From NCBI GenBank assembly GCA_026390075.1, contig JAPLGP010000005.1:25316-89315 (forward strand): DNA of 64,000 nucleotides, written 5' to 3'. This document shows positions 30,314 through 57,199 of the stretch, piece after piece; the stretch's first letter is position 1; each line of letters starts with the position of its first letter. Position numbers and translations under genes: made by a program. This DNA is from Campylobacterales bacterium. GTDB taxonomy: Bacteria; Campylobacterota; Campylobacteria; Campylobacterales; Sulfurimonadaceae. A model generated the notes under the pieces. It did no database searches and was not told the origin of the DNA. It worked only from the letters and a program-made list of their open reading frames with translations.

Positions 30314-30328
30314 ATCAAGTAGTAAGAT

Positions 30329-32527: not shown

Positions 32528-32617
32528 GATAAATTTGTTTTGCAATAGCATATTAACTTCAATTTATTGATGAATTATAAAAAATGCATCAAAAACAATT
32601 GTCGAGAAATGATCTTT

Positions 32618-32725
32618 ATTAGACTTCTTGCAAAACTCTCTTTTTAGATTGCTTCACTTCGTTCGCAATGACTGTCATTGCGAGGAGGAACGACGAAGCA
32701 ATCTTAGTTATGCAAGAACTCTATT
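32618..32725. repeat. ~108-bp palindromic repeat, copy 5
   Basis: Same inverted termini and halves; explains the spurious ORF 32628-32819. Confidence 0.9.
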
Positions 32726-32750
32726 ATTTAATACTTTAGAAATAGACTCT

Positions 32751-34929: not shown

Positions 34930-37674
34930 TTGAGAACACTATTTTTAACGGCTAAAAAATTTGCTATTGATGCTAATGCATCTATTATTACGATTGAGTA
35001 TTTTAAAGAAGCACTTTCAACTTTAGAACTGATTGATTCAGATGCTAAAAAACTTGTATATGAATATCTCAATGTTAAGCCAAACTTGACAAGCAAAGTT
35101 TCAAATGAAAACATCGATGCAGCACAAAAATATAATGTTGTACCATTTGATGATGAAGTAAAAAAGTTTAAAGAGTATTTGGAATCACATGGCTTTGCTA
35201 TGACTTCTATAGTCTCTAAAATTTTTATCGAAAAAACAAATAACATGAAAACTGTTAAAGATAATATCGCTAAACTCCAAGAATCTCTCAAGTCACAAGT
35301 GCATGGACAAGAACAAGCGATAGAAGCAGTGTGTGATAAAATCGTTGAATCAAGCTATAACATAGCAACAGATACACCAAAAGCTATTTACTTTTTTCTC
35401 GGACCTCCTGCTACTGGAAAAACTATGCTCTCAAAGCTGATAGTTGATTATTTAGATGGATATGATGCTTTTAAGATTTTTGACATGACTCAGTATAGTA
35501 GTTCTAAAGATGGTTTTGGGCTATTTGGATTAGCAAAAGGGTACAGCGATGCAGGCGAAGGTAAACTCACAAAGTTTGTAAAAGAAAATCCTAAATCAGT
35601 TGTGGTTTTTGATGAGATAGAAAAAACGCATCCTGATGTACTTTCGAACTTTTTGATGATGCTCTCATCCGGCAAGGCAGAAGATGGTTTTAGCGGTGAA
35701 AGTATAGATTTTAAAAATACCATCGTTGTTTTTACATCAAACTTAGGCTCAGAACTTTACAACAACAGCGACTTTGTTCAACTCATGAAAGAAAATCCTC
35801 TTGAAGCCAATAGCACCATCATAGAAGCCATAGGCAGAGAAGAGCGAATCATAGATGGCAATCCAAGAAAAGCATTAAGCCCAGAGCTACTCTCAAGACT
35901 TTCACAAGGTCAAATTGTTCTTTTTAATAAGTTGCCTTTTGATGCTCTTATCAATATTGTAAAAACTAAGGTTTTAGAGGTTCAGGCTGGCTTCGAGTCA
36001 AATTGGGGAATAGATATTGAGTACGATACTTTCGATAGTATTATTGCTTTGTTACTACTTTCATTTGCACCTCAAATAGATGTGCGCAAGTTAAAATCTA
36101 AATTGCCTTTAGTGCTGTTTGATTTAGTAACGGATTTTATAAGAAAGAATGATGCTCTCGTCAGTAAGGTTAGTTTTAAAATAGAGAAACACTCCGATGA
36201 GCTTATACACTCTGAGCTTTTAGATCTAAACAGCGAGGCTCAAATAAAGTTTTTACACAACATATTTAGAAAAAATGAAACATTTAAATATAAACTCTCA
36301 GAGGATTTTGATTCTGGAGTGCTCACATATACATTTAGTGATGTTATGCGTAAAAAACTCTCAAGGTCGGTAGATTTTAGCGGCGAAGAAGGTTTAGTAT
36401 TTACCGTTCCATCTATCAGTTTTAATGATGTTGCCGGACACAGTGTTGCCAAAAAAAGACTAGGTGAAGTTATCAACATACTAAAAGAGCCTAAAAAACT
36501 AGATAAGTTTAAGGTGGGTGCACCAAAAGGGATGCTTCTTTATGGTGTTCCAGGAACGGGTAAAACGATGCTCGCCAAGGCATTTGCAAATGAAGCAGAC
36601 TTGCCTTTTATACAAACAACAGGCACTGAAATACTCGATATAGAACTGATGAAAAAAATCTTCAAAAAAGCTAGAGAGTATGCACCGGCTATAGTTTTTA
36701 TTGATGAGATAGATGCCATTGGTGCGCGTGATGGCTCTCGAATGGATATTATCATCAACCAGTTTCTTACCGAGCTTAATGGTTTTTCAGATAATGCGGA
36801 TGAGATGGTATTTGTCATAGCTGCAACAAATCTAAAAGAAAAAATAGACACAGCCATACTTCGCTCAGGCAGAATAGACCTGCATGTGGAAATAGATTCA
36901 CTCGACCGTGAAGCTAGAGAGTTTTTCATAGACAAGATTTTGAAAAAACCAACCTCCGGTGCATTTGATAAAGAAAAAATCTTAACATACACAGCCGGCA
37001 TGACGGGTGCAGACTTGGAAAAAGTGGCAAGAGAGAGTGCCCTTTATGTTTTTAGAAACTCTTTGGAGAGCATCACTCAAGAGATTTTGATAGAGCAGAT
37101 AAACACCATAAAATATGGCTCAAGAATCACGCACAAATCTATAGAAAAGCTAATGAAATCAACAGCTATACATGAAGCAGGACATGCTGTAATCTCAAGA
37201 GTCTTGATGCCAGAAGTGAAAATAGAACAGATAACCGTAGTTCCAAGAAACAATGCACTAGGGTTTGTCTCTTATGATCAAGATGCAGATTTGAGTAACC
37301 TAACTAGAAAAGATATAAAAAATAAACTCTGTGTCGCTTTTGCAGGACGAGAAGCACAGCTCAAAGAGTATGGGGAAGAAGGCTTCGACAGCGGAGCTTC
37401 AAGTGACTTAAACATGGCAACAAAGTATGCTCACTACGCCATCGCAACACTTGGCATGGGCGAAAGTACAGGTTATATAAATGTATCAAACTTTAAAGAA
37501 GATTCACTTTTTGACAAAGAGATAGAAACAGAACTAAAAGCGTGGTTAGATGAAGCACAGACTCAGACTAAAGAATTGGTTGAAAAACACTGGAACAAAA
37601 TCTCAGCACTTGCAAAACTGCTTGAAGAAAAAGAGATTGTGAATGAAGCAGAGCTTCTAACTTTGATGACATAA
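34930..37674 (+). CDS. Soluble hybrid: Clp-N-like domain, ClpB-D2 AAA, FtsH AAA, M41 metalloprotease
   Basis: GPPATGKT with DEIEKTHPDV; GVPGTGKT, FIDEIDAIG, RSGRID; HEAGH; no TM segment. Confidence 0.88.
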   Translation: MRTLFLTAKKFAIDANASIITIEYFKEALSTLELIDSDAKKLVYEYLNVKPNLTSKVSNENIDAAQKYNVVPFDDEVKKFKEYLESHGFAMTSIVSKIFIEKTNNMKTVKDNIAKLQESLKSQVHGQEQAIEAVCDKIVESSYNIATDTPKAIYFFLGPPATGKTMLSKLIVDYLDGYDAFKIFDMTQYSSSKDGFGLFGLAKGYSDAGEGKLTKFVKENPKSVVVFDEIEKTHPDVLSNFLMMLSSGKAEDGFSGESIDFKNTIVVFTSNLGSELYNNSDFVQLMKENPLEANSTIIEAIGREERIIDGNPRKALSPELLSRLSQGQIVLFNKLPFDALINIVKTKVLEVQAGFESNWGIDIEYDTFDSIIALLLLSFAPQIDVRKLKSKLPLVLFDLVTDFIRKNDALVSKVSFKIEKHSDELIHSELLDLNSEAQIKFLHNIFRKNETFKYKLSEDFDSGVLTYTFSDVMRKKLSRSVDFSGEEGLVFTVPSISFNDVAGHSVAKKRLGEVINILKEPKKLDKFKVGAPKGMLLYGVPGTGKTMLAKAFANEADLPFIQTTGTEILDIELMKKIFKKAREYAPAIVFIDEIDAIGARDGSRMDIIINQFLTELNGFSDNADEMVFVIAATNLKEKIDTAILRSGRIDLHVEIDSLDREAREFFIDKILKKPTSGAFDKEKILTYTAGMTGADLEKVARESALYVFRNSLESITQEILIEQINTIKYGSRITHKSIEKLMKSTAIHEAGHAVISRVLMPEVKIEQITVVPRNNALGFVSYDQDADLSNLTRKDIKNKLCVAFAGREAQLKEYGEEGFDSGASSDLNMATKYAHYAIATLGMGESTGYINVSNFKEDSLFDKEIETELKAWLDEAQTQTKELVEKHWNKISALAKLLEEKEIVNEAELLTLMT

Positions 37675-37720
37675 CCTGTCACACATATACGAAATAATAA
37701 AAACAAAAAAAAGGAACTCC
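37665..37720 (+). repeat. ~55-bp leader repeat with TGACA-N5-TGTCA palindrome and RBS, copy 1
   Basis: GATGACATAACCTGTCACACA...AAAAGGAACTCC; second copy at 41241. Confidence 0.85.
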
Positions 37721-37728
37721 TGAATAAC

Positions 37729-40700
37729 ATGAAAACACTCAGACTCTTCATAAGCTCAACATTCGATGATTTTAAGGATGAGAGAGATGCTATCCAAGCA
37801 GAGCTTATCCCTCATTTAACTAATCTATGTAAAAAATATAGTGTAGGTTTCATGCCAATAGACCTTCGCTGGGGCGTAGCAGCAGAAACACAACATGACC
37901 AAAAAACCATGGAGTTGTGTCTTAATGAGGTAAAAGCATGTAAAGGTGAACCAAATCCAGATTTTTTAATCTTAACAGGTGATAGATATGGGTGGATACC
38001 ACTGCCTTATATGATAGAAAAAGATGAGTTTGAGACACTTTATAGTTTTATCAAAGTTGCTGATAAAGAACTCATAAATAAATGGTATATGCTCGATGAG
38101 AACCAACTTCCAGCTTCATATATCTTGCAAAAAAGAGAAAACGAGTTTACTGACTATGACACATGGATGACAATTGAAAACAAACTAAGAACAATTCTGC
38201 AAGAGAGTATCACTCAAACCGACTACTCACAAGAGATAAAAGATAAATACTTCACATCAGCAACAGAATTTGAATATCTTGATTACATAAAAGATTTCAT
38301 AGGTGAAAAAAATGAAGCTCTCTTTGTTGTAGATAGAAAAATAAATAATAATGGCATCATTTCAGATAAATATTTTGATAACAACCAAAGACTTAAAAAA
38401 TTTAAAAAAGCTCTTCAGGATAAGGCACCAGATGAACACTATATCATCTCACATACGACACTTAAACCTAAAACATATCCTAAAGAGAAGGATGTAATTG
38501 AGACCTTACATGTGAACTCACTCATAGAACAGCTCAAAGAAAAACTCTCAGCCTCTATAGAAAAAGAACTTATTAGAGTAAGCGCTTATGACACAGCAAT
38601 CAGTGAACAAGAGATACACAGACTACATAAAAATTCCATCGCAAAAAACATCTTAGGTCGAGATGAAGAGATAAACGAGATTCAAGAGTATATAAATACA
38701 GATACATCCTCCAATCCATACATTATTTATGGAACTTCAGGTTTAGGAGAATCATCTGTCATGGCATGTGGAATTCTGCAAAGCGAAGAAGCACCCAACA
38801 AACAAGTGATATGTCGCTTCTGTGGCATAACCAAAGAATCATCAAGTACACGCTCGCTTTTGAAATCAATTTTCAAGGAGCTCGACATAGAACTTCCTGA
38901 AGAACAAGCAGAGCAAACAACAATGATGCAGGAGATGACAGCTAAAAAAGAGGACACCTTTGAACTAGATGTACAAGACGCATTTGTAAACATTAAGGAA
39001 GATGTCGTCATCTATATAGATGCATTAGACCAGCTCGGAGATAAAAGTAAATTAGAATGGCTCCCTTTTACCCTACCAAAAAATCTTAAAATAGTTCTCT
39101 CAGTACTCAAAGATGAAAACTATCAAGAAGACATCTATTATCATGATAAACTCGAAGAACTTGGATTTAACAACATGCACCCACTTTCAGTTCTCAGTAG
39201 TAGTGATATAGCAAAAAAAATTCTCTTAAACACCTTAAAACCTTACAATAGAACGCTTCAAAATAATCAAATAGAGTATATTATGAATCTATATAAAGAG
39301 ATAAACTCACCGCTTTATCTCAACATCATAGCCCAAGAAGCTCTACACTGGAGTAGTAATAAAAAAGATTTTGAACTAGCAAACACACAACAAGATGCTA
39401 TACATGAGTTTATAAAAAATCTAACAGAACTCTATCACCATAACAAACTGCTCATACAAAGAGTATTTGGTTATCTATTTGCTTCTCAAAACTCTTTAGA
39501 TGAAGCAATACTTTATGAGATACTCTCAAATGATGAAGAGCTTGTCAAAAACACTGAAAATGAATACCACACAAATGTCACAAAAAAACTTCCTATGTCC
39601 GTATGGGCAAGACTCAGCTATCAGATAGCACCGTTTTTAAAAGAGGATGAAAACGCGAAGATCAAGTTCTTTCACAGAGAATTTGGCGAGGGGGCAAAAG
39701 CACTTTACAGTGTAGAACTCTCACAAAAACTTCTAAATATCTTGCAAAATATGCTCGATGCAACGACACTAAATGATGAAAAAGAATCACTTACGGATAT
39801 TTATATCAAAACTCTTATGCATCAAAAATATCTTTATCCTGAGAGTTCTATTGAGGAACAGGTTCAATATTTAAGTACAAAAGTAAAAAGTGATGAAGTA
39901 TGGGTGAGAAATTTTATTACAAAAATTTTGCAATTAGGGGAAAAGTTTTATCAGCAAACTGAAGATAAATGGGCGAAAGCTTATAATCAATGCAATATGG
40001 ATATAGCTCAAGAACTTTATGACATAGATAAAAAATTATGGCAAGAGGTTTATATTAAAGCATTAAGAAATCTTGCACTTTCATTTTTAATAGAATATGA
40101 AGAAGAGGATGGATTTTTTTTATTGAATAAATTACAATTAATTCTTCAAGATCTCTATGTACAAGACGAAAAAATATGGCTAACTTATGCAGATGCTTTA
40201 ACTTTAAATGCTGGTGCATATAGTAAGAGTGACAATCGTTTCAAAGATGCAATTCAGTTTCAAGAAAAATCTTACAGCATTCTCAAACTTCATAAAGAAA
40301 GTTCTGAAAAATGGGCAGAATCTTATACAAGAGCTTTAAGTAGACTTGCAACGTTATATGCAACTGAAGGAAATTTTCAAAATGCAATACCATTGCAGCA
40401 AGAGGCATTAGGAATCCTAGAAAATCTATATGATACTAATAAAAAAAGATGGGCAGAGGACTATACAAGTACTTTAAAAAATCTTGGAGTATCTTATACT
40501 TTTATATCACAATTCAAAGATGCAATACAGTTATTAGAGTCATCTAAAGAAATACTAAAAAACTTATTTCAAGAAAATCGAATAAGATGGGCAGATGGTT
40601 ATACTACTTCATTAAACAACCTTGCATTGATATATAAGCAAACTGGAGCAACCTCTGAAGCGATGAAACTAGAAGAAGAATCATGGGAGATACTAGAAAA

Positions 40701-41229
40701 ATTATATAATAAGAATCCAAAACGATGGGTTGAGTCCTACTTATTAGCTTCCAACAGTCTTGCTATTTCATATTATAAAGCAAATTTTTTGGATAAAGGG
40801 GTAGAGCTACTTGGAAAATCATATTTGGTAGCAATCAAATTTTTGACTAAAAATCACCAATTGACGCAAAAAATCAAAGAGAATTATGATGAATCGCTGC
40901 GTAAAAGTAAAATTGATAATTTTGATCAAGATTTAACAACAATTTTATCTCTATCAAAAGCAATAGCAATGATGAATCATAGTTTTACAATAGATTTATC
41001 TCATTTATTAGAATCATTGGATTATGTGCAATTAAGCGGAAAAGCGTACATGGCTTTTATGGAAATTTTTGATTTTAACCCTCAACAGATTGAAAAAAGA
41101 GAAGATGTAAAAATATTGTTAGAAATGGCAAAAAATCATCCAAAAATCCCATATACTCAAGACTTTAAATCTCTTATAGAACAACTCAAAGAGTTATTCG
41201 TGGATGAGAAGATTTGTAGATTGAGATGA
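37729..41229 (+). CDS. DUF4062 + STAND/NACHT-like NTPase (Walker A K-to-E) + TPR + Clp-N-like C-terminus
   Basis: RLFISSTF.DF, IDLRWGV, GTSGLGES, IYIDALDQ, FFHREF, about 6 degenerate repeats. Confidence 0.82.
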   Translation: MKTLRLFISSTFDDFKDERDAIQAELIPHLTNLCKKYSVGFMPIDLRWGVAAETQHDQKTMELCLNEVKACKGEPNPDFLILTGDRYGWIPLPYMIEKDEFETLYSFIKVADKELINKWYMLDENQLPASYILQKRENEFTDYDTWMTIENKLRTILQESITQTDYSQEIKDKYFTSATEFEYLDYIKDFIGEKNEALFVVDRKINNNGIISDKYFDNNQRLKKFKKALQDKAPDEHYIISHTTLKPKTYPKEKDVIETLHVNSLIEQLKEKLSASIEKELIRVSAYDTAISEQEIHRLHKNSIAKNILGRDEEINEIQEYINTDTSSNPYIIYGTSGLGESSVMACGILQSEEAPNKQVICRFCGITKESSSTRSLLKSIFKELDIELPEEQAEQTTMMQEMTAKKEDTFELDVQDAFVNIKEDVVIYIDALDQLGDKSKLEWLPFTLPKNLKIVLSVLKDENYQEDIYYHDKLEELGFNNMHPLSVLSSSDIAKKILLNTLKPYNRTLQNNQIEYIMNLYKEINSPLYLNIIAQEALHWSSNKKDFELANTQQDAIHEFIKNLTELYHHNKLLIQRVFGYLFASQNSLDEAILYEILSNDEELVKNTENEYHTNVTKKLPMSVWARLSYQIAPFLKEDENAKIKFFHREFGEGAKALYSVELSQKLLNILQNMLDATTLNDEKESLTDIYIKTLMHQKYLYPESSIEEQVQYLSTKVKSDEVWVRNFITKILQLGEKFYQQTEDKWAKAYNQCNMDIAQELYDIDKKLWQEVYIKALRNLALSFLIEYEEEDGFFLLNKLQLILQDLYVQDEKIWLTYADALTLNAGAYSKSDNRFKDAIQFQEKSYSILKLHKESSEKWAESYTRALSRLATLYATEGNFQNAIPLQQEALGILENLYDTNKKRWAEDYTSTLKNLGVSYTFISQFKDAIQLLESSKEILKNLFQENRIRWADGYTTSLNNLALIYKQTGATSEAMKLEEESWEILEKLYNKNPKRWVESYLLASNSLAISYYKANFLDKGVELLGKSYLVAIKFLTKNHQLTQKIKENYDESLRKSKIDNFDQDLTTILSLSKAIAMMNHSFTIDLSHLLESLDYVQLSGKAYMAFMEIFDFNPQQIEKREDVKILLEMAKNHPKIPYTQDFKSLIEQLKELFVDEKICRLR

Positions 41230-41240
41230 TTAGTTTAAAA

Positions 41241-41294
41241 GATGACATAACCTGTCACACACATGCGAAACAATAAAAACAAAAAAGGAACTCC
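41241..41294 (+). repeat. ~55-bp leader repeat, copy 2
   Basis: Near-identical to 37665-37720. Confidence 0.85.
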
Positions 41295-41297
41295 CAA

Positions 41298-44200
41298 ATG
41301 AATAACAAAAAAACATTCCGCCTCTTCATCTCCTCAACCTTTAACGACTTCCGAAGAGAACGAGAAGTTTTACAAACAAAAGTATTTCCACATGCCAAAG
41401 AGTACGCTTCAAGCAAAGGTTACACTTTTCAACCCATAGACCTTAGATGGGGAGTAAGCAACGAAGCACAGCTTGACCAAAAAACATTAGAGCTTTGTCT
41501 AAGTGAAGTACGAGCATGTAAAAGCCATATACATCCAAACTTCTTGATTATGATAGGAGATAGATATGGTTGGGTTCCACTTCCTTATGCTATAGAAAAA
41601 GAAGAGTTTGAAACATTAACTGCACTCATGACTCAAAGTGATAAAGAAGCTGTTTTAGAATGGTATAAACTAGATAAAAACCAACTTCCAGCTTCTTATA
41701 TCCTAAAAGAGCGAAGCAATGAGTACAAAGTATTTGAAACCTGGGGAGCAGTTGAAACAAACATAAGAACAATCTTACAATCAGCAGTAAATAACTCAAA
41801 CCTAACCGAAGAACAAAAGCGCAAATACTTCCTCTCAGCAACAGAAGCAGAGGTAGAAGAGGGAATCATCCCTTACATCCAACCCACAAAATATCAAACA
41901 GATGAACTCCTAAACAAAAACAGTTCACTGCATACAGTTGACCCAGAACACATCTTTGGTTTCTTTAGAGATATTGACAAATCAACTCAAACAGAAGATA
42001 AGTTTATTCAAGAGGACTACAATGAAGCTCAAGATTTTAAAGAAAGGGTCAAAGCTGAACTACTAGAAAATAATATTCTTCATGCAAAAACAACTCAAGT
42101 AGATAAAGAGAAATTAGAAGAAACCTATCTTACAGAGTTTGAAAAAAGAATGACAGAGTTCTTAGAATCTCAAATAGATTCTCAAAAAGCAAAAGAGACA
42201 GATGAAAAACTCACACCCTTACAAATAGAACTCCAAGCCCAAAGCTACTTCGCACAAATAAAAAGAAAAGACTTCCTCGCACAAGAGAGTCTAAGAGAGA
42301 CAATAGCAAACTATATCTCAGATAACAACCAACAACCATTTCTCATCTACGGAGCATCAGGAAGAGGAAAATCCTCTCTCATGGCAAAAGCAATCGAAGA
42401 AGCAGAAGAGTCTCTTCAAAAAAGAGTAATCTACCGCTTCGTAGGAGCAACTCCATATTCTAGTTCAAGTAAAGAGATACTGACAAGTATATTTGAAGAG
42501 TTAGGCGTAGATGTAAGAAGTGAGCAAGAAAAAGAAGAAAATGAACTCACTTTCAACTCAAATGAAAAACAAGAATCATTTGAAGAGTTTAGCTATAGAA
42601 TAGAAAATGAGTTTATGAATCTAAAAGAACATATAACTATTTTCATAGACGCAGTAGATCAACTAGGAAATGATGATAATTTCCTATGGCTGCCAGAAAC
42701 TTTGCCATCAAATCTAAAAATAATCATTTCAGCACTAGATGATAAAAAATACGAAGAGGACAGCAAATATTTTACAAACCTAAAAACTCAAACTCAAACT
42801 CAAACCATTTACGAGATACCAGAATTTTCACAACCAAAAGAACTTCTAAAAGCTCTTCTCAAAAAAGAAGAGAGAACTCTCCAAACAAATCAAGAGAACT
42901 ACTTCTTAGAACAGTTTAAAACCGCCAACTCACCTTTGTACATAAACGTTGCAACTCAAGAGTTAAAAAACTGGAAAAGCTATGACACTCACCAAGAGCT
43001 AGAATCAACACAACAAGGAATCATAAAAGAGTTTGTAGAAAACTTACATAAAGTTTACCATCACGATAAAGAGTTTGTTCATAAAGTGTTAGGATACCTC
43101 TATGCTTCAAGAGATGGACTCAGTGAGAGCGAACTTCTTCAACTCATTGCAACAGATAAAGAATTTATCCAAAAAATGGCACCAGAGACATGGCATGAAA
43201 ACCCAAACAAAGAACTCCCTCTGGTTCACTGGTCAAGACTTCAAACACAACTCAAACCTTTTCTAAGTTCAAAAACTCAAGATGGTGAAGAACTCATGTA
43301 CTTCTTTCATAGAGAGTTTGAAGATGTCATAGCAAAACTTCCAAACCAAAGAGAAGAACATGAAGCGATTATAAAAGCTACTCAAAAATTGATAGAACAA
43401 AACCAAGACAAACCATTCGACTCTAACAGATGGGGGAAACTTTATGCGACACTTATTACAGAGTATGAACTAAGATACCAAGATAAAGAGAAACAAAAAG
43501 AGTTTGCAGAGTTTATTGCTATCATTAATGATGAACCGTGGATTCAAAAGTGTGTAAGTAATCTCACAGAGATTGGTTATACACATATGATATACAATCG
43601 AATGCGAAAAGCAATGGCATATCAAGAGAGTGTTTTATATGCAACTAAGGCACTTTATAAATCTGACAAAGAGAGATGGGCAAATAATTACACCACGGCC
43701 CTAAATAATTTAGCCTTATCATATACAAATGTAAACCGCCAAAATGAAGCGATAGCACTCCAAGAGAAGAGTCTTGCAATCCTTGAAGAACTTTATAGAT
43801 CTGACAAAGAGAGATGGGTGGAGTTTTACACTACATCTCTAAATAATCTAGCCTATTCATATACAAATGTAAACCGCCAAAATGAAGCGATAGCATTCCA
43901 AGAGAAAAGTCTTGCAATCCTTGAACCGCTTTATGCATCCGACCAAGAGAGATGGGCAAAGGATTACACTTTAGCTATGGGTAATCTAGCCACTTCATAC
44001 GCAAATGTAAACCGCCAAAATGAAGCGATAGCATTCCAAGAGAAAAGTCTTGCAATCCTTGAAGAACTTTATAAATCTGACAAAGAGAGATGGGCAAATA
44101 ATTACACCACGGCCCTAAATAATTTAGCCTTATCATATACAAATGTAAACCGCCAAAATGAAGCGATAGCATTCCAAGAGAAAAGTCTTGCAATCCTTGA

Positions 44201-45419
44201 AGCACTCTATACATCCGACAAAGAGAGATGGGCGGAGCTTTACATCAAAGCTCTGATTAATCTGGCAACTTCATATAAAAACGTAAACCACATAAACGAA
44301 GCAATAACGCTTGAAACTAAAGGTATTTCAATCCTTGAAGTACTTTATGAAATGCACTCTCAGAGATGGGCAGAGGATTACACCACGGCTCTAAATAATT
44401 TAGCCTTATCATATACAAATGTGAACCGCCAAAATGAAGCGATAACGCTTGGCGAGAAGAATCTTTCAATCTGTGAAACACTTTACACATCCGACAAAGA
44501 GAGATGGGCGGAGCTTTACATCACAGTTCTAAGTAATCTTGCAGTTTTTAGCGGAAAAATCAACCACATAGAGGAAGCCATAACACTTCAAGAAAAGAGT
44601 CTCACAATTCTTGAAATACATTACAAAACGGACCCTCAAAGATGGTCGGAGCTTTACACCAGAGCTCTAAATTCTTTAGCTTTCTTATATATGAATGCAA
44701 CCCGCCAAAACGAGGCAATAACACTTCAAGAAAAGAGTCTCACAATTCTTGAAATACATTACAAAACGGACCCTCAAAGATGGGCGGAGCTTTACACCAC
44801 AGTTCTGATTAATCTTGCAAATTCTTATGCAAATGCAAACCGCCAAAATGAAGCAATAGCACTCGAAGAGAAAAGTCTTGCAATTCGTGAAGCACTTTAT
44901 TCATCCGACAAAGAGAGATGGGCGGAGCTTTACACCAAAGCTCTGGATAATCTTGCCGTTACTTTTTATGACCATGGGGACAAAGAAAAATCTTTAAAAT
45001 TATTGAATGAAAATTATAAAATTCATAAAAAACATTATGGAGAAAATGATGCAAGAACTTTAGAAGTAATATCAAGCATAGAGATTGTTCAAGGCAAACA
45101 AATAAAAACTAGTGTTGTAAACGCAACATTTACAGATTTACTTTATCTTTCAAAGTTTATAGCACAAACAAAGGAACAAAATGAAATTTGTGAAACTAGT
45201 TTTATATATGCGCTAGGTTGTATAGAATTGAATGAACAAGCGAAACAAATTTTTTCACAATTGACTAACCTTGAAGAATTGGGTAGATATGAAGGCGCTC
45301 AACAATATATAGAACAGGTAAAAAACACTCCAAAGATTTTATATAGTGAAAAGTTAAAAGGAGTTGTTAAACAGCTTCAAGAGATATTTGGTGATAAGCC
45401 AATAGGGACATTGAGATGA
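41298..45419 (+). CDS. DUF4062 + STAND/NACHT-like NTPase + 10 TPR-like repeats + Clp-N-like C-terminus
   Basis: RLFISSTF, IDLRWGV, GASGRGKS, IFIDAVDQ, FFHREF. Confidence 0.85.
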   Translation: MNNKKTFRLFISSTFNDFRREREVLQTKVFPHAKEYASSKGYTFQPIDLRWGVSNEAQLDQKTLELCLSEVRACKSHIHPNFLIMIGDRYGWVPLPYAIEKEEFETLTALMTQSDKEAVLEWYKLDKNQLPASYILKERSNEYKVFETWGAVETNIRTILQSAVNNSNLTEEQKRKYFLSATEAEVEEGIIPYIQPTKYQTDELLNKNSSLHTVDPEHIFGFFRDIDKSTQTEDKFIQEDYNEAQDFKERVKAELLENNILHAKTTQVDKEKLEETYLTEFEKRMTEFLESQIDSQKAKETDEKLTPLQIELQAQSYFAQIKRKDFLAQESLRETIANYISDNNQQPFLIYGASGRGKSSLMAKAIEEAEESLQKRVIYRFVGATPYSSSSKEILTSIFEELGVDVRSEQEKEENELTFNSNEKQESFEEFSYRIENEFMNLKEHITIFIDAVDQLGNDDNFLWLPETLPSNLKIIISALDDKKYEEDSKYFTNLKTQTQTQTIYEIPEFSQPKELLKALLKKEERTLQTNQENYFLEQFKTANSPLYINVATQELKNWKSYDTHQELESTQQGIIKEFVENLHKVYHHDKEFVHKVLGYLYASRDGLSESELLQLIATDKEFIQKMAPETWHENPNKELPLVHWSRLQTQLKPFLSSKTQDGEELMYFFHREFEDVIAKLPNQREEHEAIIKATQKLIEQNQDKPFDSNRWGKLYATLITEYELRYQDKEKQKEFAEFIAIINDEPWIQKCVSNLTEIGYTHMIYNRMRKAMAYQESVLYATKALYKSDKERWANNYTTALNNLALSYTNVNRQNEAIALQEKSLAILEELYRSDKERWVEFYTTSLNNLAYSYTNVNRQNEAIAFQEKSLAILEPLYASDQERWAKDYTLAMGNLATSYANVNRQNEAIAFQEKSLAILEELYKSDKERWANNYTTALNNLALSYTNVNRQNEAIAFQEKSLAILEALYTSDKERWAELYIKALINLATSYKNVNHINEAITLETKGISILEVLYEMHSQRWAEDYTTALNNLALSYTNVNRQNEAITLGEKNLSICETLYTSDKERWAELYITVLSNLAVFSGKINHIEEAITLQEKSLTILEIHYKTDPQRWSELYTRALNSLAFLYMNATRQNEAITLQEKSLTILEIHYKTDPQRWAELYTTVLINLANSYANANRQNEAIALEEKSLAIREALYSSDKERWAELYTKALDNLAVTFYDHGDKEKSLKLLNENYKIHKKHYGENDARTLEVISSIEIVQGKQIKTSVVNATFTDLLYLSKFIAQTKEQNEICETSFIYALGCIELNEQAKQIFSQLTNLEELGRYEGAQQYIEQVKNTPKILYSEKLKGVVKQLQEIFGDKPIGTLR
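43659..45038 (+). repeat. Ten 138-bp (46-aa) coding tandem repeats
   Basis: Unit such as KSDKERWANNYTTALNNLALSYTNVNRQNEAIALQEKSLAILEELY; 138-bp spacing checked (43662 vs 43800). Confidence 0.92.
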
Positions 45420-45441
45420 AAAATGAGGTTTTTAAAATTTA

Positions 45442-46014
45442 TTGGCAAAAAGGTTATCTATGTCACAAGAAGAACAATTTAAAATTGAAAAAATAAAAGG
45501 TGATTTTGCTGAGCTTATTTGTAAGCATCATTTTGAATATATGGGCTTTAAAATGGATAAAGTCGGAATCGAAGATTTGTCACCCTCTTTTGCAAAACTT
45601 AGCAGTAGTAACAATGCGGTAACATCTTTGAAAAAACTTATTCAGTATATGCCGGATTTTTTAGCAGTTTATCCAAGCTTAGGTTTGGCATCTTTTATTG
45701 AAGTAAAGTACAGAAGAAATATAACAGATTTGCATCTAGTAGAGTTCTCAAAAGAGCTGCATCTTAGATATGAAAATGTAATGAAAGATGGCATTCCTTT
45801 ATATTTTTATCTTGTAACAAATAAAGCGCCGTATGTCTATATCATGAAAGCCTATGCTTTGAAGCACAAAGAACAAACCGGCGGGTTTTATAGTGTAGAA
45901 GATAATGCTTTAAATAATTTGGTGTTTTTCCAATCTAAAAACAAAAATGCCAGCTTTAGTGAGGCGTATAAAGACTGCATTAAAACTGCAATTGTTGAAA
46001 TTTTGGAGGCATAA
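45442..46014 (+). CDS. PD-(D/E)XK nuclease-like protein
   Basis: AELIC...MPDF...FIEVK. Confidence 0.65.
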   Translation: MAKRLSMSQEEQFKIEKIKGDFAELICKHHFEYMGFKMDKVGIEDLSPSFAKLSSSNNAVTSLKKLIQYMPDFLAVYPSLGLASFIEVKYRRNITDLHLVEFSKELHLRYENVMKDGIPLYFYLVTNKAPYVYIMKAYALKHKEQTGGFYSVEDNALNNLVFFQSKNKNASFSEAYKDCIKTAIVEILEA

Positions 46015-46016
46015 GT

Positions 46017-47996
46017 ATGAGAGTAGGTTTAATTAAAAATCAGGAGATTACGCCTGAAATACCACTCGTAGATGTTAAATTTACACACTCTCTTTGTATC
46101 GGTCAAACAGGGAGTGGCAAGACAAGTTCATTTGTTTATCCAAACCTTTTAAACAGGCTTAAGCTTGGTCATGGGGTGCTGTTTTTTGACATCAAAGGGA
46201 GTGAGCACAAGGCTATAAAAAAACTGGCAAAAGATGTAAACAGACTGCAAGATGTTTTAGAAGTAGGCAAGCCTTGGGGTGAAAATATAAATATTTTAAA
46301 AGATTTTAACAGTAGAACTTTCTCTACACTTTTAACTTCACTTGTAGGCGATCCAAAAGATGCAGGACAAAACGCATATTTTTATAACGCTGCGATTGCG
46401 CTAGGTCTTAATATTTTCAACATCTTAAAGCTTTGTTCTATCATTTCAAAAGAGATAAGAGAGTTAGGCATTGAAGTTTCTTTTGAACTGTATGAATTTT
46501 TTAGTTTTAGCGATTTGTACAAGGCAAGCTTGGGTATCAATAATCTTTATGATTTTTTGCAAGAGAAAAAAAGTTTTCAAGATGCTGTATTTGAGATTAT
46601 AAAAACAGATGCCGCCTTGTATCTTGGTAAAAATAAAGAGCTATATAAAAACATTGTTTTAAATTATGCCAATCTCAAGTCGCAATTAGCAAACTTACAA
46701 AAATATGATGTTCCGCAAAAAAAGAGAAATGACAGAGAGAAGTTTGACCTTGCGCTTATTCCTGTTATCCATTCACTCTCAGAAGCTTTTAGTTTTATGG
46801 TAACACCGGCGGCAAAATATATCTCGCAAAAAGATAATCCATTTGATATTGTTCAGAGTCTGCAAGATGGCAAAATCGTAATCATTAATGTGAGGGTAAT
46901 ACCCGATGCCATTTTAGAGTTGATGCTAGATCAGCTTTTTGAAAAGCTTATAGACTTAAATCTGGTTCGAGAGGAGCACAGGCATCCTACCTCTATTTTT
47001 ATAGATGAAGCACAAAGACTTATCAATAAGAATATTCCCTTAGATATATTGAGAAGTTCAAAAATAGATGTTATTTTGGCTGTTCAAAGCGAACTTCAAC
47101 TCATCAGTAAGTTTGGTTCCAAAGAGGACTGGCAGCAGATATCAGTAAATATCGCCGATAAATATGCCTATAGGTCATCCTTCTTCGGTGGCGACCATCT
47201 TGCCTCATTTTACATCGACACCGCAACATTGAATCCTTTTGAATACGCAAAAGAGCATGATACAAATATTAAAAAAGCGATACCAATTTTTATGGACAAA
47301 GATGAACTTGACTTTGTTGAACTAAAGTATCAGCATGAGGTTTTAAAGTTATCAGGTCTTACAAAAAATGAGCTGTTTCAATATGATGTCACTCATTTTG
47401 AGAATGAAAGAGAAGTGCTGATTTTCAATATAAAAACAATGAAAAAGCAGTATAAGAAGCTTTTTACATCATTTGAAGATAATCTAATTTTTTCCATCAT
47501 TGAAAAATTTGTTCCACTTCCTTTGGAAACACTGATAAATAAAGTCGGTATGACTCTTTCTCAAAATCTATGGAATCATATATATAATGAGTTTCATATT
47601 TGCAGTGAAGAGCAGTTTAATAAACTATTCATTGGAGCCTTTCCTTCACTCGTAGAAGTATGCAATTTCTTATTATTGAAACTTGACACTGATGATGAAG
47701 AGTATGAGGATATCTCCTTGAACTTGCTTGGTCAGGTGATGGAAAATCACTATGATGATATAGAGATACTCAAAGATGAAGAACTTGATGAGGACGATAT
47801 ACCTTTTGATGAGCCACAAGGAACTATCATCAGTATAAATTCTAAAAAAGCACAGCAAAAGTTAGAAAAAGTAATAGATGTGATGGGGTTTTTATATTAT
47901 GAAGCGGATAGTATGAGCTGTCTGCTTTTTAAAGATGCAGATAAAAACACTAACAAAGATAAAAGTCTAATAGAGGAAGAAGAAAGTGGATTTTGA
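46017..47996 (+). CDS. VirD4/TraD-like P-loop ATPase with acidic tail
   Basis: IGQTGSGKT, FFDIKG, IFIDEAQ, LAVQS. Confidence 0.75.
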   Translation: MRVGLIKNQEITPEIPLVDVKFTHSLCIGQTGSGKTSSFVYPNLLNRLKLGHGVLFFDIKGSEHKAIKKLAKDVNRLQDVLEVGKPWGENINILKDFNSRTFSTLLTSLVGDPKDAGQNAYFYNAAIALGLNIFNILKLCSIISKEIRELGIEVSFELYEFFSFSDLYKASLGINNLYDFLQEKKSFQDAVFEIIKTDAALYLGKNKELYKNIVLNYANLKSQLANLQKYDVPQKKRNDREKFDLALIPVIHSLSEAFSFMVTPAAKYISQKDNPFDIVQSLQDGKIVIINVRVIPDAILELMLDQLFEKLIDLNLVREEHRHPTSIFIDEAQRLINKNIPLDILRSSKIDVILAVQSELQLISKFGSKEDWQQISVNIADKYAYRSSFFGGDHLASFYIDTATLNPFEYAKEHDTNIKKAIPIFMDKDELDFVELKYQHEVLKLSGLTKNELFQYDVTHFENEREVLIFNIKTMKKQYKKLFTSFEDNLIFSIIEKFVPLPLETLINKVGMTLSQNLWNHIYNEFHICSEEQFNKLFIGAFPSLVEVCNFLLLKLDTDDEEYEDISLNLLGQVMENHYDDIEILKDEELDEDDIPFDEPQGTIISINSKKAQQKLEKVIDVMGFLYYEADSMSCLLFKDADKNTNKDKSLIEEEESGF

Positions 47997-48342: not shown

Positions 48343-48353
48343 AGGAAAATAAG

Positions 48354-48458
48354 ATGCAATCAAAAACATTTAGACTTTTTATAAGCTCAACATTCAGTGA
48401 TTTTGTAAATGAGCGTGAAATTTTACACACAAAAGTATTTCCACATGCCAAAGTATAA
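48354..48458 (+). pseudogene. 34-codon remnant of a third DUF4062 gene
   Basis: MQSKTFRLFISSTFSDFVNEREILHTKVFPHAKV*. Confidence 0.85.
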
Positions 48459-48603
48459 AACATGGCAATTGACAAATGCAAGAAACTTAGTAATTTTAGT
48501 CAAATCTATAAATTCATTAATGCAACATAATGTGTTCAATAAATTTGACATTATTAAAGTATTTCAATACTATATAAAATATATTTGACAAAAAAGAGCT
48601 AGT

Positions 48604-48846
48604 ATGGATTTTAGAGAGTTTGGAAATGAGATGGCGAAACTACGAAAAACTAAAAATGTATCGCAAAAAGATTTGAGTGATGATTTGCATATTTCAAGAG
48701 CTACAATCAGCAGTTTTGAAAACGGTGGAAGCGTGAATATTGGGTTTAAAAAAGTTTTGCAGATAGCGGACTATCTTGGATATGAGATTGCACTCAAAGA
48801 AAAATCAGATTTTCCTGTTTTTGAGGAGATACTTAGTGGAGAATAA
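48604..48846 (+). CDS. hipB: HipB-like XRE HTH antitoxin
   Basis: HTH SQKDL..ISRATISSFENG; TTGACA-17-TACTAT promoter at 48545-73. Confidence 0.8.
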   Translation: MDFREFGNEMAKLRKTKNVSQKDLSDDLHISRATISSFENGGSVNIGFKKVLQIADYLGYEIALKEKSDFPVFEEILSGE

Positions 48847-53957: not shown

Positions 53958-53998
53958 TTTTATGACTATAAAAGATTCAAATTATTAATAAAAAGATA

Positions 53999-54106
53999 AA
54001 TAGACTTCTTGCAAAACTAAGATTGCTTCGTCGTTCCTCCTCGCAATGACGGTCATTGCGAACGAAGTGAAGCAATCTAAAAAGAGAGTTTTGCAAGAAG
54101 TCTAAT
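53999..54106. repeat. ~108-bp palindromic repeat, copy 6
   Basis: AATAGACTTCTTGCAAAACT...AGTTTTGCAAGAAGTCTAA. Confidence 0.9.
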
Positions 54107-54136
54107 ATTTAGACTATTACAAAAAGGAATCAATCT

Positions 54137-55750
54137 ATGTTGAAACAAATCGTAGAATATGGGATAATCACGCAAGAGCAAGCCCAACTCATAGATAAAC
54201 TGCACTACACAACCAAAAAAGATATTGATTTACTTTTAGAAGAGTATGGTTATATCAACAGCGTTACTAGAGCTCAAATGCAAGCACGGCAAAATGAAAT
54301 TCCATATGTTGATTTGTCTTCTCATAGTATTACTGAGGAAGCCTTACAGTGTATCACTAAAGAAAAAGCACTAGAATATACATTATTGCCCCTCTATGTA
54401 AATGAGCATGAACTTACAATTGCCATAAACGAAGCAGCTGATTTTGGGAAACTTATTTTTTTGGAACGCCATACACAAAAAAATATCCGTTTTGTATATA
54501 CAGATACTCAGCAGCTTTTATCACATATTCAGATGCATTATTATGGTGAAAAATCTTTGCAAGTATATATGTATGATTTTGAGACTAGCGATGTAATTCT
54601 ACTTCTTAATACGCTTTTAAACAGTGCTATAGATTATCGTGCATCAGATATTCACTTGTCTCCAGAGCATGATGCCTTACATGTTTTTTTCAGGATAGAT
54701 GGGGTGTTGCAACATATGGCAGTAGTGAAGCTTGAGATGTTGTCCTCTCTTGCAGTGCGCATAAAAACACTTTCAAATCTTGATATTTCTCAAAAACGCA
54801 TTGCTATGGATGGCTCTTTTTCGCATCACCATTTAGATAAAGAGTTTGACTTTCGTGTTTCAACTTTGCCGACTGATATGGGTGAAAATATAGTCATGCG
54901 TATTTTGTCAAAAGATGCTAATCTGTTTAAGGTTGATAATCTAGGGATCAATGAAAGCAATACTAAAAAAATTAAAGAGTTGATACATAAACCTTATGGT
55001 GTTATCTTGATTACAGGTCCAACAGGCAGCGGTAAAACAACAACACTTTATGCGGTTCTCAACGAAATCAATAGATTACAAAAAAATATTTTAACTATTG
55101 AAAACCCCATAGAATACCGTTTTCCTTTCATAAAACAAACACAATACAACCCAAAAGCAGGTTTTACTTATGATATGGCAATTAAATCTTTTATGCGTCA
55201 AGACCCCGATGTAATTATGGTTGGAGAAATTCGAGATCCGCAAACAGCCGAACTTGCAATGGAAGCTTCTATCACTGGGCATATGGTGCTCTCTACGCTT
55301 CATACCAATGATGCGCTGAGTGCTATTACACGACTTAAAAGTCTGGATGTCGCGCCATATCTCTTAGGTTCTGGAATGTTGGCTGTTCTGGCACAGCGCT
55401 TAGTGCGAAAATTGTGCGAACATTGTAAAATACCTCAAGAACTTCAAAAAGAAGATTTAAAGAATTATAACTTCGGCATAGATGACCTTAATGTAGCAAA
55501 AGATATAACAATTTTCAAAGCATGTGGATGCGACCGATGTTATGGTTTAGGATACAAAGGGCGCATTGCGATAGTAGAAATAGTTGAAATAGATAAACAA
55601 ATGCAGAGATATATTTCAGATGGAGCAACAGAGAGTCAGCTGCATACTTACACAAAAGAACAAGGCATGAAAACACTTAGAGATGATGCCTTGGAAAAAG
55701 TTTTTACAGGCAAAACATCTTTTGATGAAGTTGAACGACATATTTTCTAA
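54137..55750 (+). CDS. GspE/PilB-family secretion ATPase
   Basis: ASDIH, GPTGSGKTTTLY, RQDPDVIMVGEIRD, TGHMVLSTLHTN, CEHC/CDRC. Confidence 0.92.
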   Translation: MLKQIVEYGIITQEQAQLIDKLHYTTKKDIDLLLEEYGYINSVTRAQMQARQNEIPYVDLSSHSITEEALQCITKEKALEYTLLPLYVNEHELTIAINEAADFGKLIFLERHTQKNIRFVYTDTQQLLSHIQMHYYGEKSLQVYMYDFETSDVILLLNTLLNSAIDYRASDIHLSPEHDALHVFFRIDGVLQHMAVVKLEMLSSLAVRIKTLSNLDISQKRIAMDGSFSHHHLDKEFDFRVSTLPTDMGENIVMRILSKDANLFKVDNLGINESNTKKIKELIHKPYGVILITGPTGSGKTTTLYAVLNEINRLQKNILTIENPIEYRFPFIKQTQYNPKAGFTYDMAIKSFMRQDPDVIMVGEIRDPQTAELAMEASITGHMVLSTLHTNDALSAITRLKSLDVAPYLLGSGMLAVLAQRLVRKLCEHCKIPQELQKEDLKNYNFGIDDLNVAKDITIFKACGCDRCYGLGYKGRIAIVEIVEIDKQMQRYISDGATESQLHTYTKEQGMKTLRDDALEKVFTGKTSFDEVERHIF

Positions 55751-55856
55751 ATTATTATTGGAATGTGTATTTTAAATTTTTATACAAATAATAAAAAATG
55801 TAGTTTAACACGCTTAAAAGTAATATTTTACTAACATTCTTATAATTTCAGGAGAA

Positions 55857-56795
55857 TTGATGCAAGAAAGTAAGCACGATAAATTTTTTTCAAGAGCACT
55901 ACTCATACTGCAAAGACTTTCAGTAGAAGGTTCTGTAAGTATAATAGATTTGGCAAAGGATTATAATTGCGATAAAAGAACAATCTACCGTGACATAAAA
56001 AGACTTCATTTTTTCCCGCTGGAACTCAATGCGGGAATAGTAAGTGTTGCAGACGGTTTTAGCCTCGAACACGCTAAACTTCAAGAAAATGAGCTGCTCA
56101 TTGCAGAACTAGCCTTTAGTGCAATAGATGGCATAGACAGTAAAATAGACAAACATATCCAAGCTATTCGCGCAAAACTTTCTAATCCTCTTTTCTTCAC
56201 ACCATACAGCATAAAAGCAGAGGCATATGAAGATATAAATATGAATTCAGAGTTGCTAAATAAAATCGAAGACGCGATTATGAAAAGAAATATATCAAAA
56301 GTAACAAGTAACTCAGTGATGGCAACAATTGAGCCTTATAAAGTTGTTGCATTTGATGGTTTTTGGTATCTACTCGCAAAAGATTTAAAAGATCAAAAAA
56401 TTAAAACATTTCTCGTTTCCTATATTAATGAGTTTAGAGCAACTGCGCAAGTTTATGAAACAACAAAAACCAATATTAATCAAGTTTTAGAAAATGTCCA
56501 TACAGCTTGGTTTGAAGACGGCAACAGCTTTGAGGTAAAAATCAAAGTAAAATCACCAGTTGCCAAGTATTTCAAACTCAAAAAGCATCTATCGTCTCAA
56601 AAAATTATAAAAGAGGATAGTGACGGTTCTCTGATTGTGAGTTTTGAAGTAAGTAGTGACGAAGATGTGGACAATATCATTAAAGCTTGGTTGCCACATG
56701 TAGAAGTGATAAAACCTGAGCGATTTAGAAAAAAATTTATTGTTGAACTAGAAGAGTATGTTAGAGAATTAAAAACTGTTCAGTATGATATATAA
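55857..56795 (+). CDS. WYL-domain transcriptional regulator (HTH-WYL-WCX)
   Basis: RTIYRDI, EPYKVV..GFWYL, PHVEVIKP. Confidence 0.9.
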   Translation: MMQESKHDKFFSRALLILQRLSVEGSVSIIDLAKDYNCDKRTIYRDIKRLHFFPLELNAGIVSVADGFSLEHAKLQENELLIAELAFSAIDGIDSKIDKHIQAIRAKLSNPLFFTPYSIKAEAYEDINMNSELLNKIEDAIMKRNISKVTSNSVMATIEPYKVVAFDGFWYLLAKDLKDQKIKTFLVSYINEFRATAQVYETTKTNINQVLENVHTAWFEDGNSFEVKIKVKSPVAKYFKLKKHLSSQKIIKEDSDGSLIVSFEVSSDEDVDNIIKAWLPHVEVIKPERFRKKFIVELEEYVRELKTVQYDI

Positions 56796-56798
56796 GCT

Positions 56799-56828
56799 GC
56801 AGGAAACCCAAAAAGTCTCCTGCTTTTT
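56799..56828 (+). terminator. Rho-independent terminator after the WYL gene
   Basis: GCAGGA...TCCTGC followed by TTTTT. Confidence 0.55.
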
Positions 56829-56859
56829 AGTGTATAGGGGAGTGGTTACAATCTAAAAT

Positions 56860-57102
56860 TTATTTCTTAATTGTTAATTCACGATTATTATCATAATGTA
56901 CAACATCACCTTGTTGTCCTATTGTATCATTTTTTACAGGCTTTTCTTTCTCCTTTTCACGATAATTATCATAATATACAACATCACCTTGTTGACCAAT
57001 TGCATAACCTTTAACAATATACTTTTCTTCATCTTTAGCAGATGCAACATTGACCAACAGTATAGTCAGACTAAGAAATAAAATCTTTACTATTTTTTTC
57101 AT
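56860..57102 (-). CDS. Small secreted protein with internal repeat
   Basis: Signal peptide; IGQQGDVV(Y/H)YDN twice; AAGGAG RBS. Confidence 0.75.
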   Translation of the reverse strand: MKKIVKILFLSLTILLVNVASAKDEEKYIVKGYAIGQQGDVVYYDNYREKEKEKPVKNDTIGQQGDVVHYDNNRELTIKK

Positions 57103-57178
57103 TTTCTCTCCTTGAGAAATTTATTTGAAGCAACTCAATCAAAGCTTTGTTGATTGATATTAAAATAATAAAGTATCT

Positions 57179-57199
57179 ATATGACAGGTTGAGTCATAT
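57179..57199. promoter_or_regulatory. Palindromic operator-like site
   Basis: ATATGAC-AGGTTGA-GTCATAT; the reverse strand matches TGACATAACCTGTCA at 13/15. Confidence 0.6.

Follow-up and report, generated by a model that had tools for sequence, protein, structure and literature searches.

What can bring two large genes and a small one, set apart from each other on a bacterial genome island, under the same control? The question is raised by a stretch of 64,000 nucleotides (the window, whose coordinates are used throughout) from a Campylobacterales bacterium of the Sulfurimonadaceae (GenBank assembly GCA_026390075.1, contig JAPLGP010000005.1, positions 25,316 to 89,315), in which the palindrome TGAC-N7-GTCA precedes two neighbouring genes for STAND nucleoside triphosphatases (NTPases), here called STAND1 and STAND2, and, on the reverse strand, a small gene for a secreted protein in the vicinity of a WYL regulator gene. 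An original prediction, made from the letters alone, had taken this palindrome for an operator that links the STAND genes to the WYL locus. In the reading that we consider quite likely, the palindrome acts as DNA box for the island's own factor, a protein with winged helix-turn-helix (wHTH), WYL and WCX domains, and is built into three promoters, where it probably serves an activation of the DriD/PafBC type. Binding by the WYL regulator, activation rather than repression, and a sensed ligand are what we infer from comparison of sequences. STAND1, STAND2 and the small secreted-protein gene would then probably answer to one DriD/PafBC-like sensor protein.

Three boxes in one genome

Searched for the pattern TGAC-N7-GTCA, the window yields exactly three sites (Table 1), and these are the expected ones, namely one copy before each STAND gene, the first overlapping the stop codon of a protease gene, and the reverse-strand copy before the small secreted gene. 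Each is found within a short intergenic spacer whose two flanking genes run in one direction, and is oriented toward the downstream gene: box 1 between an AAA-FtsH-like protease gene and STAND1, box 2 between STAND1 and STAND2, and box 3 between an integrase-like gene and the gene for an 80-residue protein with a signal peptide. The bare count of three is only mildly unusual. Shuffled versions of the window hold 0.68 +/- 0.89 such sites, with three or more in 5 of 100 shuffles, and the source assembly (2.40 Mb, 34% G+C) has 20 sites in total.

Longer versions of the motif are far more selective. The extended form TGAC..AACCTGTCA occurs three times in the 2.40-Mb genome, always in the window and within 20 kb, and the 20-mer ATGACATAACCTGTCACACA matches only the three window boxes in the whole genome when as many as four mismatches are tolerated. 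A position weight matrix (PWM) was also built from 29 sites, each consisting of a box plus a -10 hexamer and all taken from other genomes, and was then run over the full source assembly. The window boxes took the first three ranks, and the fourth scored 13.6; the lowest score among the training sites themselves was 24.1. Box 3, as the top match in the genome for a matrix trained on foreign sites, is therefore no chance match. A genome scan had been proposed in the original prediction as a check, and the extended motif and the matrix alike single out the same three sites.

Since no other high PWM scores exist in this genome, the regulon there should comprise three promoters. The idea of an island-wide regulon holds to that extent, and not for the remaining genes: neither the box search nor the PWM scan gives a box before the YbjN/protease pair, hipBA, the two RCK/RyR genes, the T2SSE gene or the WYL gene itself. 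DNA-damage response genes (recA, recJ, uvr etc.) likewise have no box, as the whole-genome PWM scan yields the three island promoters only.

The two STAND boxes are not separate pieces of evidence. STAND1 and STAND2 are 37% identical over 1068 residues and their coding DNA is 64-67% identical, and the 60 nt that precede their leaders are 56% identical, which is the background level. The leaders themselves (37665-37720 and 41241-41294, running from GATGAC to GGAACTCC in the region of the ribosome-binding site, RBS) agree in 51 of 56 columns (91%), and this identity extends over the otherwise non-conserved 11-nt spacer and the 5′ untranslated region. Such a pattern points to promoter copying or gene conversion, i.e. 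to a putative portable, WYL-dependent promoter unit. Because boxes 1 and 2 lie within one duplicated leader, they are not independent and should statistically be counted once, and the weight must rest on box 3 and on evidence from outside this genome.

The same duplication could be used to argue that the sites have no common function at all, being a copied 56-bp leader joined by a chance third match, or a hairpin in the mRNA, or a site of the adjacent tyrosine recombinase. Three or more sites do appear in some shuffled windows, box 3 sits 66 bp from the 3′ end of the integrase-like gene, and the 5-bp arms could pair weakly. Against a chance third match stands the first rank of box 3 with a foreign-trained matrix. 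Against a hairpin, the box is upstream of the predicted transcription start and so outside the transcript of its own promoter, and the one base that differs in the arms of box 3 (A to T) has no compensating change. Against a recombinase, the boxes of other genomes are found at promoters without integrases, and the core sites of tyrosine recombinases need longer arms than these 4-5 bp. We regard this whole group of explanations as having next to no probability. A sigma-54 or extracytoplasmic function (ECF) sigma promoter, an integron attC site and a dif/Xer-like site were considered separately in a by-eye check and dismissed, as spacing and arms do not fit.

A further TGAC/GTCA pair in the window belongs to a different kind of element. 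A hairpin of ~105 nt (54001-54105, -52 kcal/mol) is located between the second RCK/RyR gene and that for T2SSE, and the perfect 21-bp palindrome TCGCAATGACgGTCATTGCGA (54041-61), tried as the true WYL operator, was rejected as the tip of that hairpin, with a 10-mer arm present ~93 times genome-wide and an outer arm ~20 times. From these copy numbers, the hairpin is classed as a dispersed repeat, similar to repetitive extragenic palindromes or miniature inverted-repeat transposable elements, and not as a WYL box.

The box follows the WYL gene across Sulfurimonas

The WYL regulator belongs to a family that is populous in Sulfurimonas, with 120 of 301 matches listed and 43-80% identity among the matches listed. 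The contigs carrying orthologues of 80%, 72% and 69% identity were scanned for the box, together with the neighbourhoods of WYL orthologues from another five Sulfurimonas genomes. In all of these eight other Sulfurimonas genomes or contigs, the WYL orthologues (45-80% identical) are surrounded by a box of the form YGACA-N5-TGTCR, with variants that include TGACATAACCTGTCA, TGACACAAGCTGTCA, CGACACAACTTGTCA and CGACGCAACCTGTCG. This clustering supports the proposed tie between the operator and WYL. The 16-mer of the source genome gave 0 matches in 60 relatives, the pattern being too strict.

The STAND family shows no such association. Many of the closest relatives of the two STAND proteins are from Campylobacterota (Sulfurimonas, Sulfurovum, Sulfurospirillum, Campylobacter concisus and Arcobacter), and 79 loci with STAND homologues in other genomes were collected by an alignment-based scan, amounting to 1.24 Mb of surrounding sequence. 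The strict box occurs 21 times in 167 kb of WYL loci vs 0 times in this set, and the box together with its -10 hexamer 24 vs 0 times. Upstream of the STAND homologues in the 79 loci there was neither a box nor any common motif. As STAND homologues elsewhere lack the box, its linkage runs through WYL and not through the STAND family.

The boxed genes recur from genome to genome. They are the operon of a TraG-like ATPase and WYL, a divergent AAA_5 operon, a Band_7 gene, a YbjN-protease operon, an inositol-phosphatase-like gene, an FGase-like gene and several genes for small exported proteins or lipoproteins. The promoter of the WYL operon is boxed in all the orthologous loci seen among the relatives (the source genome is not one of them), which would imply autoregulation in these relatives. 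On the contigs with the 80%, 72% and 69% orthologues, an AAA_5 ATPase gene and a gene for a 485-residue protein face the oppositely oriented genes for the TraG-like ATPase and WYL, forming a conserved core, and in two of the three contig sets this core is directly followed by a YbjN-like gene and an AAA-FtsH protease gene, whose product is 74% identical to the protease of the window. The two divergent operons have one box each, arranged back to back at 8-47 bp from one another (L087 8265-8302, L114 8792-8868, L083 4464-4503), each with its own -10 at 11 nt.

At the scale of the genus, the pattern YGACAYAWSYTGTCA gave 39 matches in 17 of 121 genomes, and a reversed control pattern gave 2. Boxes are present in all four of the other genomes whose WYL orthologue is at least 60% identical (9, 4, 2 and 1 boxes), and one genome with a 45% orthologue has eight boxes, mostly within ~55 kb of WYL. 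Five genomes with homologues of 32-44% identity have 0 or 1 box each, and near these distant homologues no convincing boxes were seen. Most of the relatives are metagenome-assembled genomes, and the genomes of the genus are interrelated, so that the counts overstate independence.

A fixed promoter register and its candidate reader

Boxes can be oriented by their asymmetric centre, as YTGTC marks the 3′ half, and 36 boxes were oriented in this way. A hexamer of the form [TA]A...T lies at exactly 11 nt 3′ of the box in 31 of the 36, as against 14 at the next commonest offset. This hexamer is mostly TATACT, other forms being TAAACT, TAGACT, TATAAT and TAATAT, and in most cases the RBS and start codon come 22-33 nt past it. 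The consensus for the genus is thus YGACA-YAWSY-TGTCR, 11 nt, TAnAMT. The sequences of these 11-nt spacers bear no relation to one another, which means that selection, and not inheritance, maintains the register. The three window boxes share the arrangement, with leaders from hexamer to start codon (RBS included) of 22-33 nt, or 62 nt for the small gene; at STAND1, the predicted transcription start is ~37705 and the RBS AAGGAA precedes the ATG at 37729. If the -10 hexamer is placed at -12 to -7, the box would cover about -38 to -24, the usual place of a -35 element. TGACA was ruled out as such an element, as its spacer would be 20-21 nt, and a simple scan gave no consensus sigma-70 promoter or terminator at the three box sites.

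The candidate reader of the box is the WYL regulator. It shows the Pfam order HTH_11 (8.6e-7), WYL (3.7e-8) and WCX (6.5e-11), and PADLOC WYL models match it at 2.8e-22. Among 43 orthologues, W169-Y170-L171 is invariant; the family consensus DGIWYLLAKD is a canonical WYL motif without flanking arginines, and in the orthologue alignment the RWHVR motif of CapW and BrxR is not present. In the putative recognition helix (K39-R40-T41-I42-Y43-R44-D45), R40 and R44 are both kept in 39 of the 43 orthologues, with K at one of the positions in the other four. These two conserved arginines are, by analogy with solved complexes, candidates for the base readers of the GAC half-sites. The helix pattern [K/R]-R-T-x-x-R fits R36, R37, T38, E40 and R41 of DriD in a comparison by pattern. 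Co-variation of helix position 43 with the outer base of the box was considered and discarded: the orthologue at L083 has the same RTIYRD helix and mostly CGAC...GTCG boxes. An AlphaFold2 model built from the 43 orthologues was compared with the PDB by Foldseek, and the best matches were DriD (1e-13) and PafBC (4e-13), followed by CapW (4e-8) and BrxR (1e-7); the predicted fold thus appears nearest to that of DriD.

These observations can be joined into a possible course of events, in which we have moderate confidence and which rests on the analogy with DriD and PafBC: a homodimer of the WYL regulator would sense a nucleic-acid ligand and then activate weak promoters that have no -35 element. 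The signal, probably single-stranded DNA (ssDNA) from DNA damage or phage replication, would free the wHTH domains of the dimer; R40 and R44 would read the G and the C of each GAC half-site; the bound dimer would assist RNA polymerase at promoters where the enzyme by itself performs poorly; and STAND1, the STAND2 operon with its 190-residue protein and TraG-like ATPase, and the small secreted protein would be switched on.

The same protein on the same box could also be a repressor in the style of BrxR and CapW. It would sit at -38 to -24, block RNA polymerase and leave on binding ssDNA, whereupon the STAND genes would be de-repressed. Indeed, the characterized WYL factors adjacent to defence systems, BrxR and CapW, are repressors that bind palindromes of ~20 bp and respond to ssDNA (PMC11662680). 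Box and core promoter overlap in Sulfurimonas, and both proteins are significant fold matches. However, a register of 11 nt over more than 30 unrelated promoters is typical of stereospecific activation and equals that of DriD and PafBC (PMC13004042, PMC8635444), the fold matches to DriD and PafBC are five to six orders of magnitude better, and the RWHVR motif that marks CapW and BrxR (PMC11662680) is here replaced by the canonical W169-Y170-L171. Given the fixed register, the fold ranking and the canonical WYL motif, DriD, DdaA and PafBC are better analogues than BrxR and CapW. The analogy with BrxR and CapW that had been drawn at the outset therefore keeps its WYL-family palindrome logic and yields to the activators in the rest, and repression seems to us rather unlikely.

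A third possibility is that the box is a real promoter element read by another factor encoded elsewhere, with WYL as a mere neighbour. In its favour, the WYL gene is not adjacent to the STAND boxes in the source genome, and boxed promoters occur in two genomes (G091 and G141, discussed below) without a detected close WYL orthologue. On the other hand, WYL is the sole DNA-binding protein in the conserved core, the promoter of its operon is boxed in each of the orthologous loci seen, and the box has the geometry of solved WYL-DNA complexes; the two genomes also both hold distant WYL homologues, and one of them is fragmented. Such a factor is, in our estimate, very improbable.

Several points nevertheless weigh against activation through the WYL regulator. 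The structural model is only moderate (pLDDT 73, pTM 0.38) and its inter-domain placement is uncertain. Sequence similarity to solved WYL factors is marginal, with profile E-values of 0.001 for PafBC and 0.09 for DriD, and phmmer searches with the regulator give no DriD match at E up to 1. Of the arginine pair behind the WYL motif that aligns with PafB, one is not conserved (KTFL vs RTFR), so the ligand may not be ssDNA. The window hexamers AATAAT, AACAAT and TATTAT are unlike the TATACT typical in relatives, and a dimer centred near -31 would be expected to act as a classical repressor. Promoters of Campylobacterota mostly do without a -35 element, so that its absence at the boxed promoters is not diagnostic, and repression could accommodate it equally. 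The WYL gene is ~10-18 kb from the STAND boxes, and its own 106-bp upstream region is without a box. Finally, ten genomes have one or two boxes and no close WYL orthologue. In the four of these that were examined, two boxes lie in coding DNA without a -10 and are probably chance matches; G091 and G141 have well-formed boxed promoters, and only WYL homologues of 29% identity were found in them. These promoters (L093, G091:C44, and L094, G141:C42) stand beside an AAA_5 orthologue, a protease-like gene and a metallophosphatase gene, and the assembly of G091 is fragmented (89% complete, 240 contigs). It may be that the orthologue is missing from the assembly, or else that the same box is read by a divergent paralogue; the orphan boxed promoters leave the one-to-one correspondence of box and WYL somewhat weakened.

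Genes behind the boxes

If the boxes are promoters of one system, the regulon of this genome would probably consist of STAND1, of STAND2 with the two genes behind it, and of the small secreted gene. The gaps of 22 and 2 nt behind STAND2 suggest that the gene for the 190-residue protein and that for the TraG/HerA-like ATPase are probably in the STAND2 transcript, expressed from the box-2 promoter. The 659-residue ATPase is a homologue of the TraG-like protein whose gene precedes WYL in the relatives. The small secreted gene would be a typical target, as small exported proteins and lipoproteins carry boxes in the relatives.

Table 1. Positions of the boxes, -10-like hexamers and genes in the window
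Feature	Position	Strand	Description	Basis
WYL box 1	37667-37681	+	TGACATAACCTGTCA; overlaps protease stop codon (TAA 37672-74)	PWM 23.5, genome rank 2
-10-like hexamer of box 1	37693-37698	+	AATAAT, 11 nt 3′ of box (spacer cacatatacga)	
STAND1	37729-41229	+	DUF4062, STAND NTPase (NPHP3_N/nSTAND1), TPR; 1166 aa	Pfam
WYL box 2	41243-41257	+	TGACATAACCTGTCA, identical to box 1	PWM 17.2, genome rank 3
-10-like hexamer of box 2	41269-41274	+	AACAAT, 11 nt 3′ of box (spacer cacacatgcga)	
STAND2	41298-45419	+	DUF4062, STAND NTPase, TPR; 1373 aa	Pfam
190-aa gene and 659-aa TraG/HerA-like ATPase gene	45442-47996 (ATPase 46017-47996)	+	behind STAND2	gaps 22 and 2 nt
Putative box binder (WYL regulator)	55860-56795	+	wHTH-WYL-WCX, 311 aa	Pfam, PADLOC, orthologue alignment, fold
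80-aa gene	56860-57102	-	signal peptide, internal IGQQGDVV.YDN repeat; downstream of box 3	
-10-like hexamer of box 3	57165-57170	-	TATTAT, 11 nt 3′ of box (spacer tatagatactt)	
WYL box 3	57182-57196	-	TGACTCAACCTGTCA (read on minus strand)	PWM 25.0, genome rank 1

The layout of the island differs from that of the relatives. In the window (34333-56795), the order is YbjN, protease, STAND1, STAND2, the 190-residue gene and the TraG-like gene, and then ~7.9 kb with a 118-residue open reading frame, a STAND remnant, hipBA, two RCK/RyR genes and a T2SSE gene before WYL, which begins 10.4 kb past the STAND2 stop codon and 14.6 kb from box 2. In the relatives L083 and L084, the TraG-like and WYL genes come first, then one or two small genes, the YbjN-like gene, the protease gene and a non-STAND gene; the last encodes a small protein with a signal peptide in L083, and in L084 a 503-residue ankyrin-repeat protein with a PDC-M72A match. 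The T2SSE gene found upstream of WYL in the window bears no relation to the TraG-like gene in the corresponding position of the relatives. Compared with them, the gene order of the window is rearranged and WYL, judging by its upstream DNA, has lost its boxed promoter.

Between the TraG-like ATPase gene and hipB, 34 codons of a third DUF4062-STAND gene remain (48354-48458, + strand, MQSKTFRLFISSTFSDFVNEREILHTKVFPHAKV*), with no WYL box upstream, and the remnant suggests that the gene was truncated on arrival of the hipBA-RCK-RCK-T2SSE block. A tRNA-Met/Gln/Met cluster stands before the variable region; the cluster and the genes that follow it span 24836-25119 and 29120-33059, and the genes past it encode an AAA_14/DUF4143 ATPase, a TOTE-type AEP primase-helicase (PF22548, 1.6e-68) and a minimal nucleotidyltransferase. 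A tRNA-derived direct (att) repeat, which could mark the island borders, was not found in the window.

What is already known here is the control of defence genes by WYL factors (BrxR, CapW, DdaA) and the GAC-N7-GTC box. New are the divergent WYL family of Campylobacterota, its consensus and target set, and the wiring of paired STAND genes, the last in only this genome so far; a full-text literature search found no study of the Sulfurimonas WYL family. The result is a testable regulon for an uncharacterized WYL family, in a phylum from which no such family is known to have been studied, with three promoters in the source genome and more than 30 across the genus, and the consensus can be used for the annotation of WYL targets in Sulfurimonas genomes and metagenome-assembled genomes. 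It also leads to the prediction of inducible and not constitutive transcription for a pair of large STAND NTPases, which bears on how costly NLR-like sensors are tolerated. More tentatively, and with some doubt on our side, Sulfurimonas may hold a very divergent, undescribed branch of WYL activators, for which the box and its -10 form a portable promoter cassette for conflict genes. If so, the gain of a leader of ~55 bp would be sufficient to wire a new conflict gene into one circuit that senses damage or phage; examples would be the DUF4062-STAND-TPR pair in the source genome and, elsewhere, the AAA-FtsH protease, ATPases, Band_7 and small exported proteins.

Comparison with known WYL factors

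The solved WYL factors read a GAC-N7-GTC geometry (PMC13004042, PMC10853764, PMC12392091), and the Sulfurimonas box can be set beside four of the known cases. With BrxR and CapW, the WYL repressors of BREX and CBASS, the WYL regulator of the window shares the wHTH-WYL-WCX architecture, the location in a defence island and the palindromic target in promoters. Those two, however, are encoded directly upstream of the system that they control, which is not the position of the window gene, they have RWHVR in place of WYL, their fold match is weaker, and a fixed distance from box to -10 is not described in the work cited on them.

DdaA of Acinetobacter and other Moraxellaceae binds CGWCA-N5-TGWCG, e.g. 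CGACAATATGTGTCG (PMC12392091), and directly activates repair genes and anti-phage systems, among them CRISPR-Cas, Zorya and restriction-modification (PMC12392091, PMC13010146). The inner core GACA-N5-TGTC is common to both boxes. The differences are that the Sulfurimonas-type box stands 11 nt from its -10, and that DdaA commands a genome-wide DNA-damage regulon replacing SOS, whereas the source genome has three sites and none at repair genes.

PafBC is an actinobacterial WYL activator of the sigma-adaptation kind, and its promoters have the form tGTCgg-N10-tANNNT and no -35 element (PMC8635444). The likeness is close in this respect, as TGTC begins 16 nt ahead of the -10 in both (TGTCA-N11-TAnAMT in Sulfurimonas), two arginines read the GTC element in PafBC and would do so in Sulfurimonas, and PafBC is the second-best fold match. 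The difference is that PafBC is a heterodimer that reads a single half-site and needs RNA polymerase alongside in order to bind DNA; the full palindrome in Sulfurimonas implies a homodimer that would use both wHTH domains.

The nearest case is DriD of Caulobacter crescentus, which is the best structural match and has the same domain order. Its box, ATACGAC-N7-GTCGTAT, overlaps the place of a -35 element and keeps a constant distance to the -10 (PMC13004042), and both boxes consist of two GAC/GTC half-sites around an AT-rich 7-bp centre (YGAC-N7-GTCR in Sulfurimonas). The guanines of GAC/GTC are read by R37/R41 in DriD and R46/R50 in PafB (PMC10853764, PMC8635444), to which R40/R44, spaced i, i+4 as in DriD, would correspond. 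The distance to the -10 is 11 nt in Sulfurimonas and 10-11 nt in DriD, the latter being our own reading of the didA oligonucleotide, in which an engineered TTGACA and a 17-nt spacer lead to the -10 CAATCT and GTCG ends 11 nt before it (10 with a 16-nt spacer). In other respects, the two have moved far apart: sequence identity is ~15% and profile searches barely detect the relation, the outer box positions are T/A in Sulfurimonas vs C/G, the ATA/TAT flanking arms are missing, and the position of Glu40 is Tyr in the window protein and variable in the orthologues (Y, R, Q, E, H). The targets differ as well, being STAND NTPases, ATPases, a protease, Band_7 and small exported proteins and not didA, bapE, recJ and dnaG. 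The match in register to the DriD and PafBC complexes solved by cryo-electron microscopy suggests that the geometry of WYL activation is conserved across distant phyla, and, on the more tentative reading of a divergent branch of WYL activators in Sulfurimonas, the same distance from GTC to the -10 in Actinobacteria (PafBC), Alphaproteobacteria (DriD) and Campylobacterota would mean that one docking geometry with RNA polymerase is ancestral to the WYL activators.

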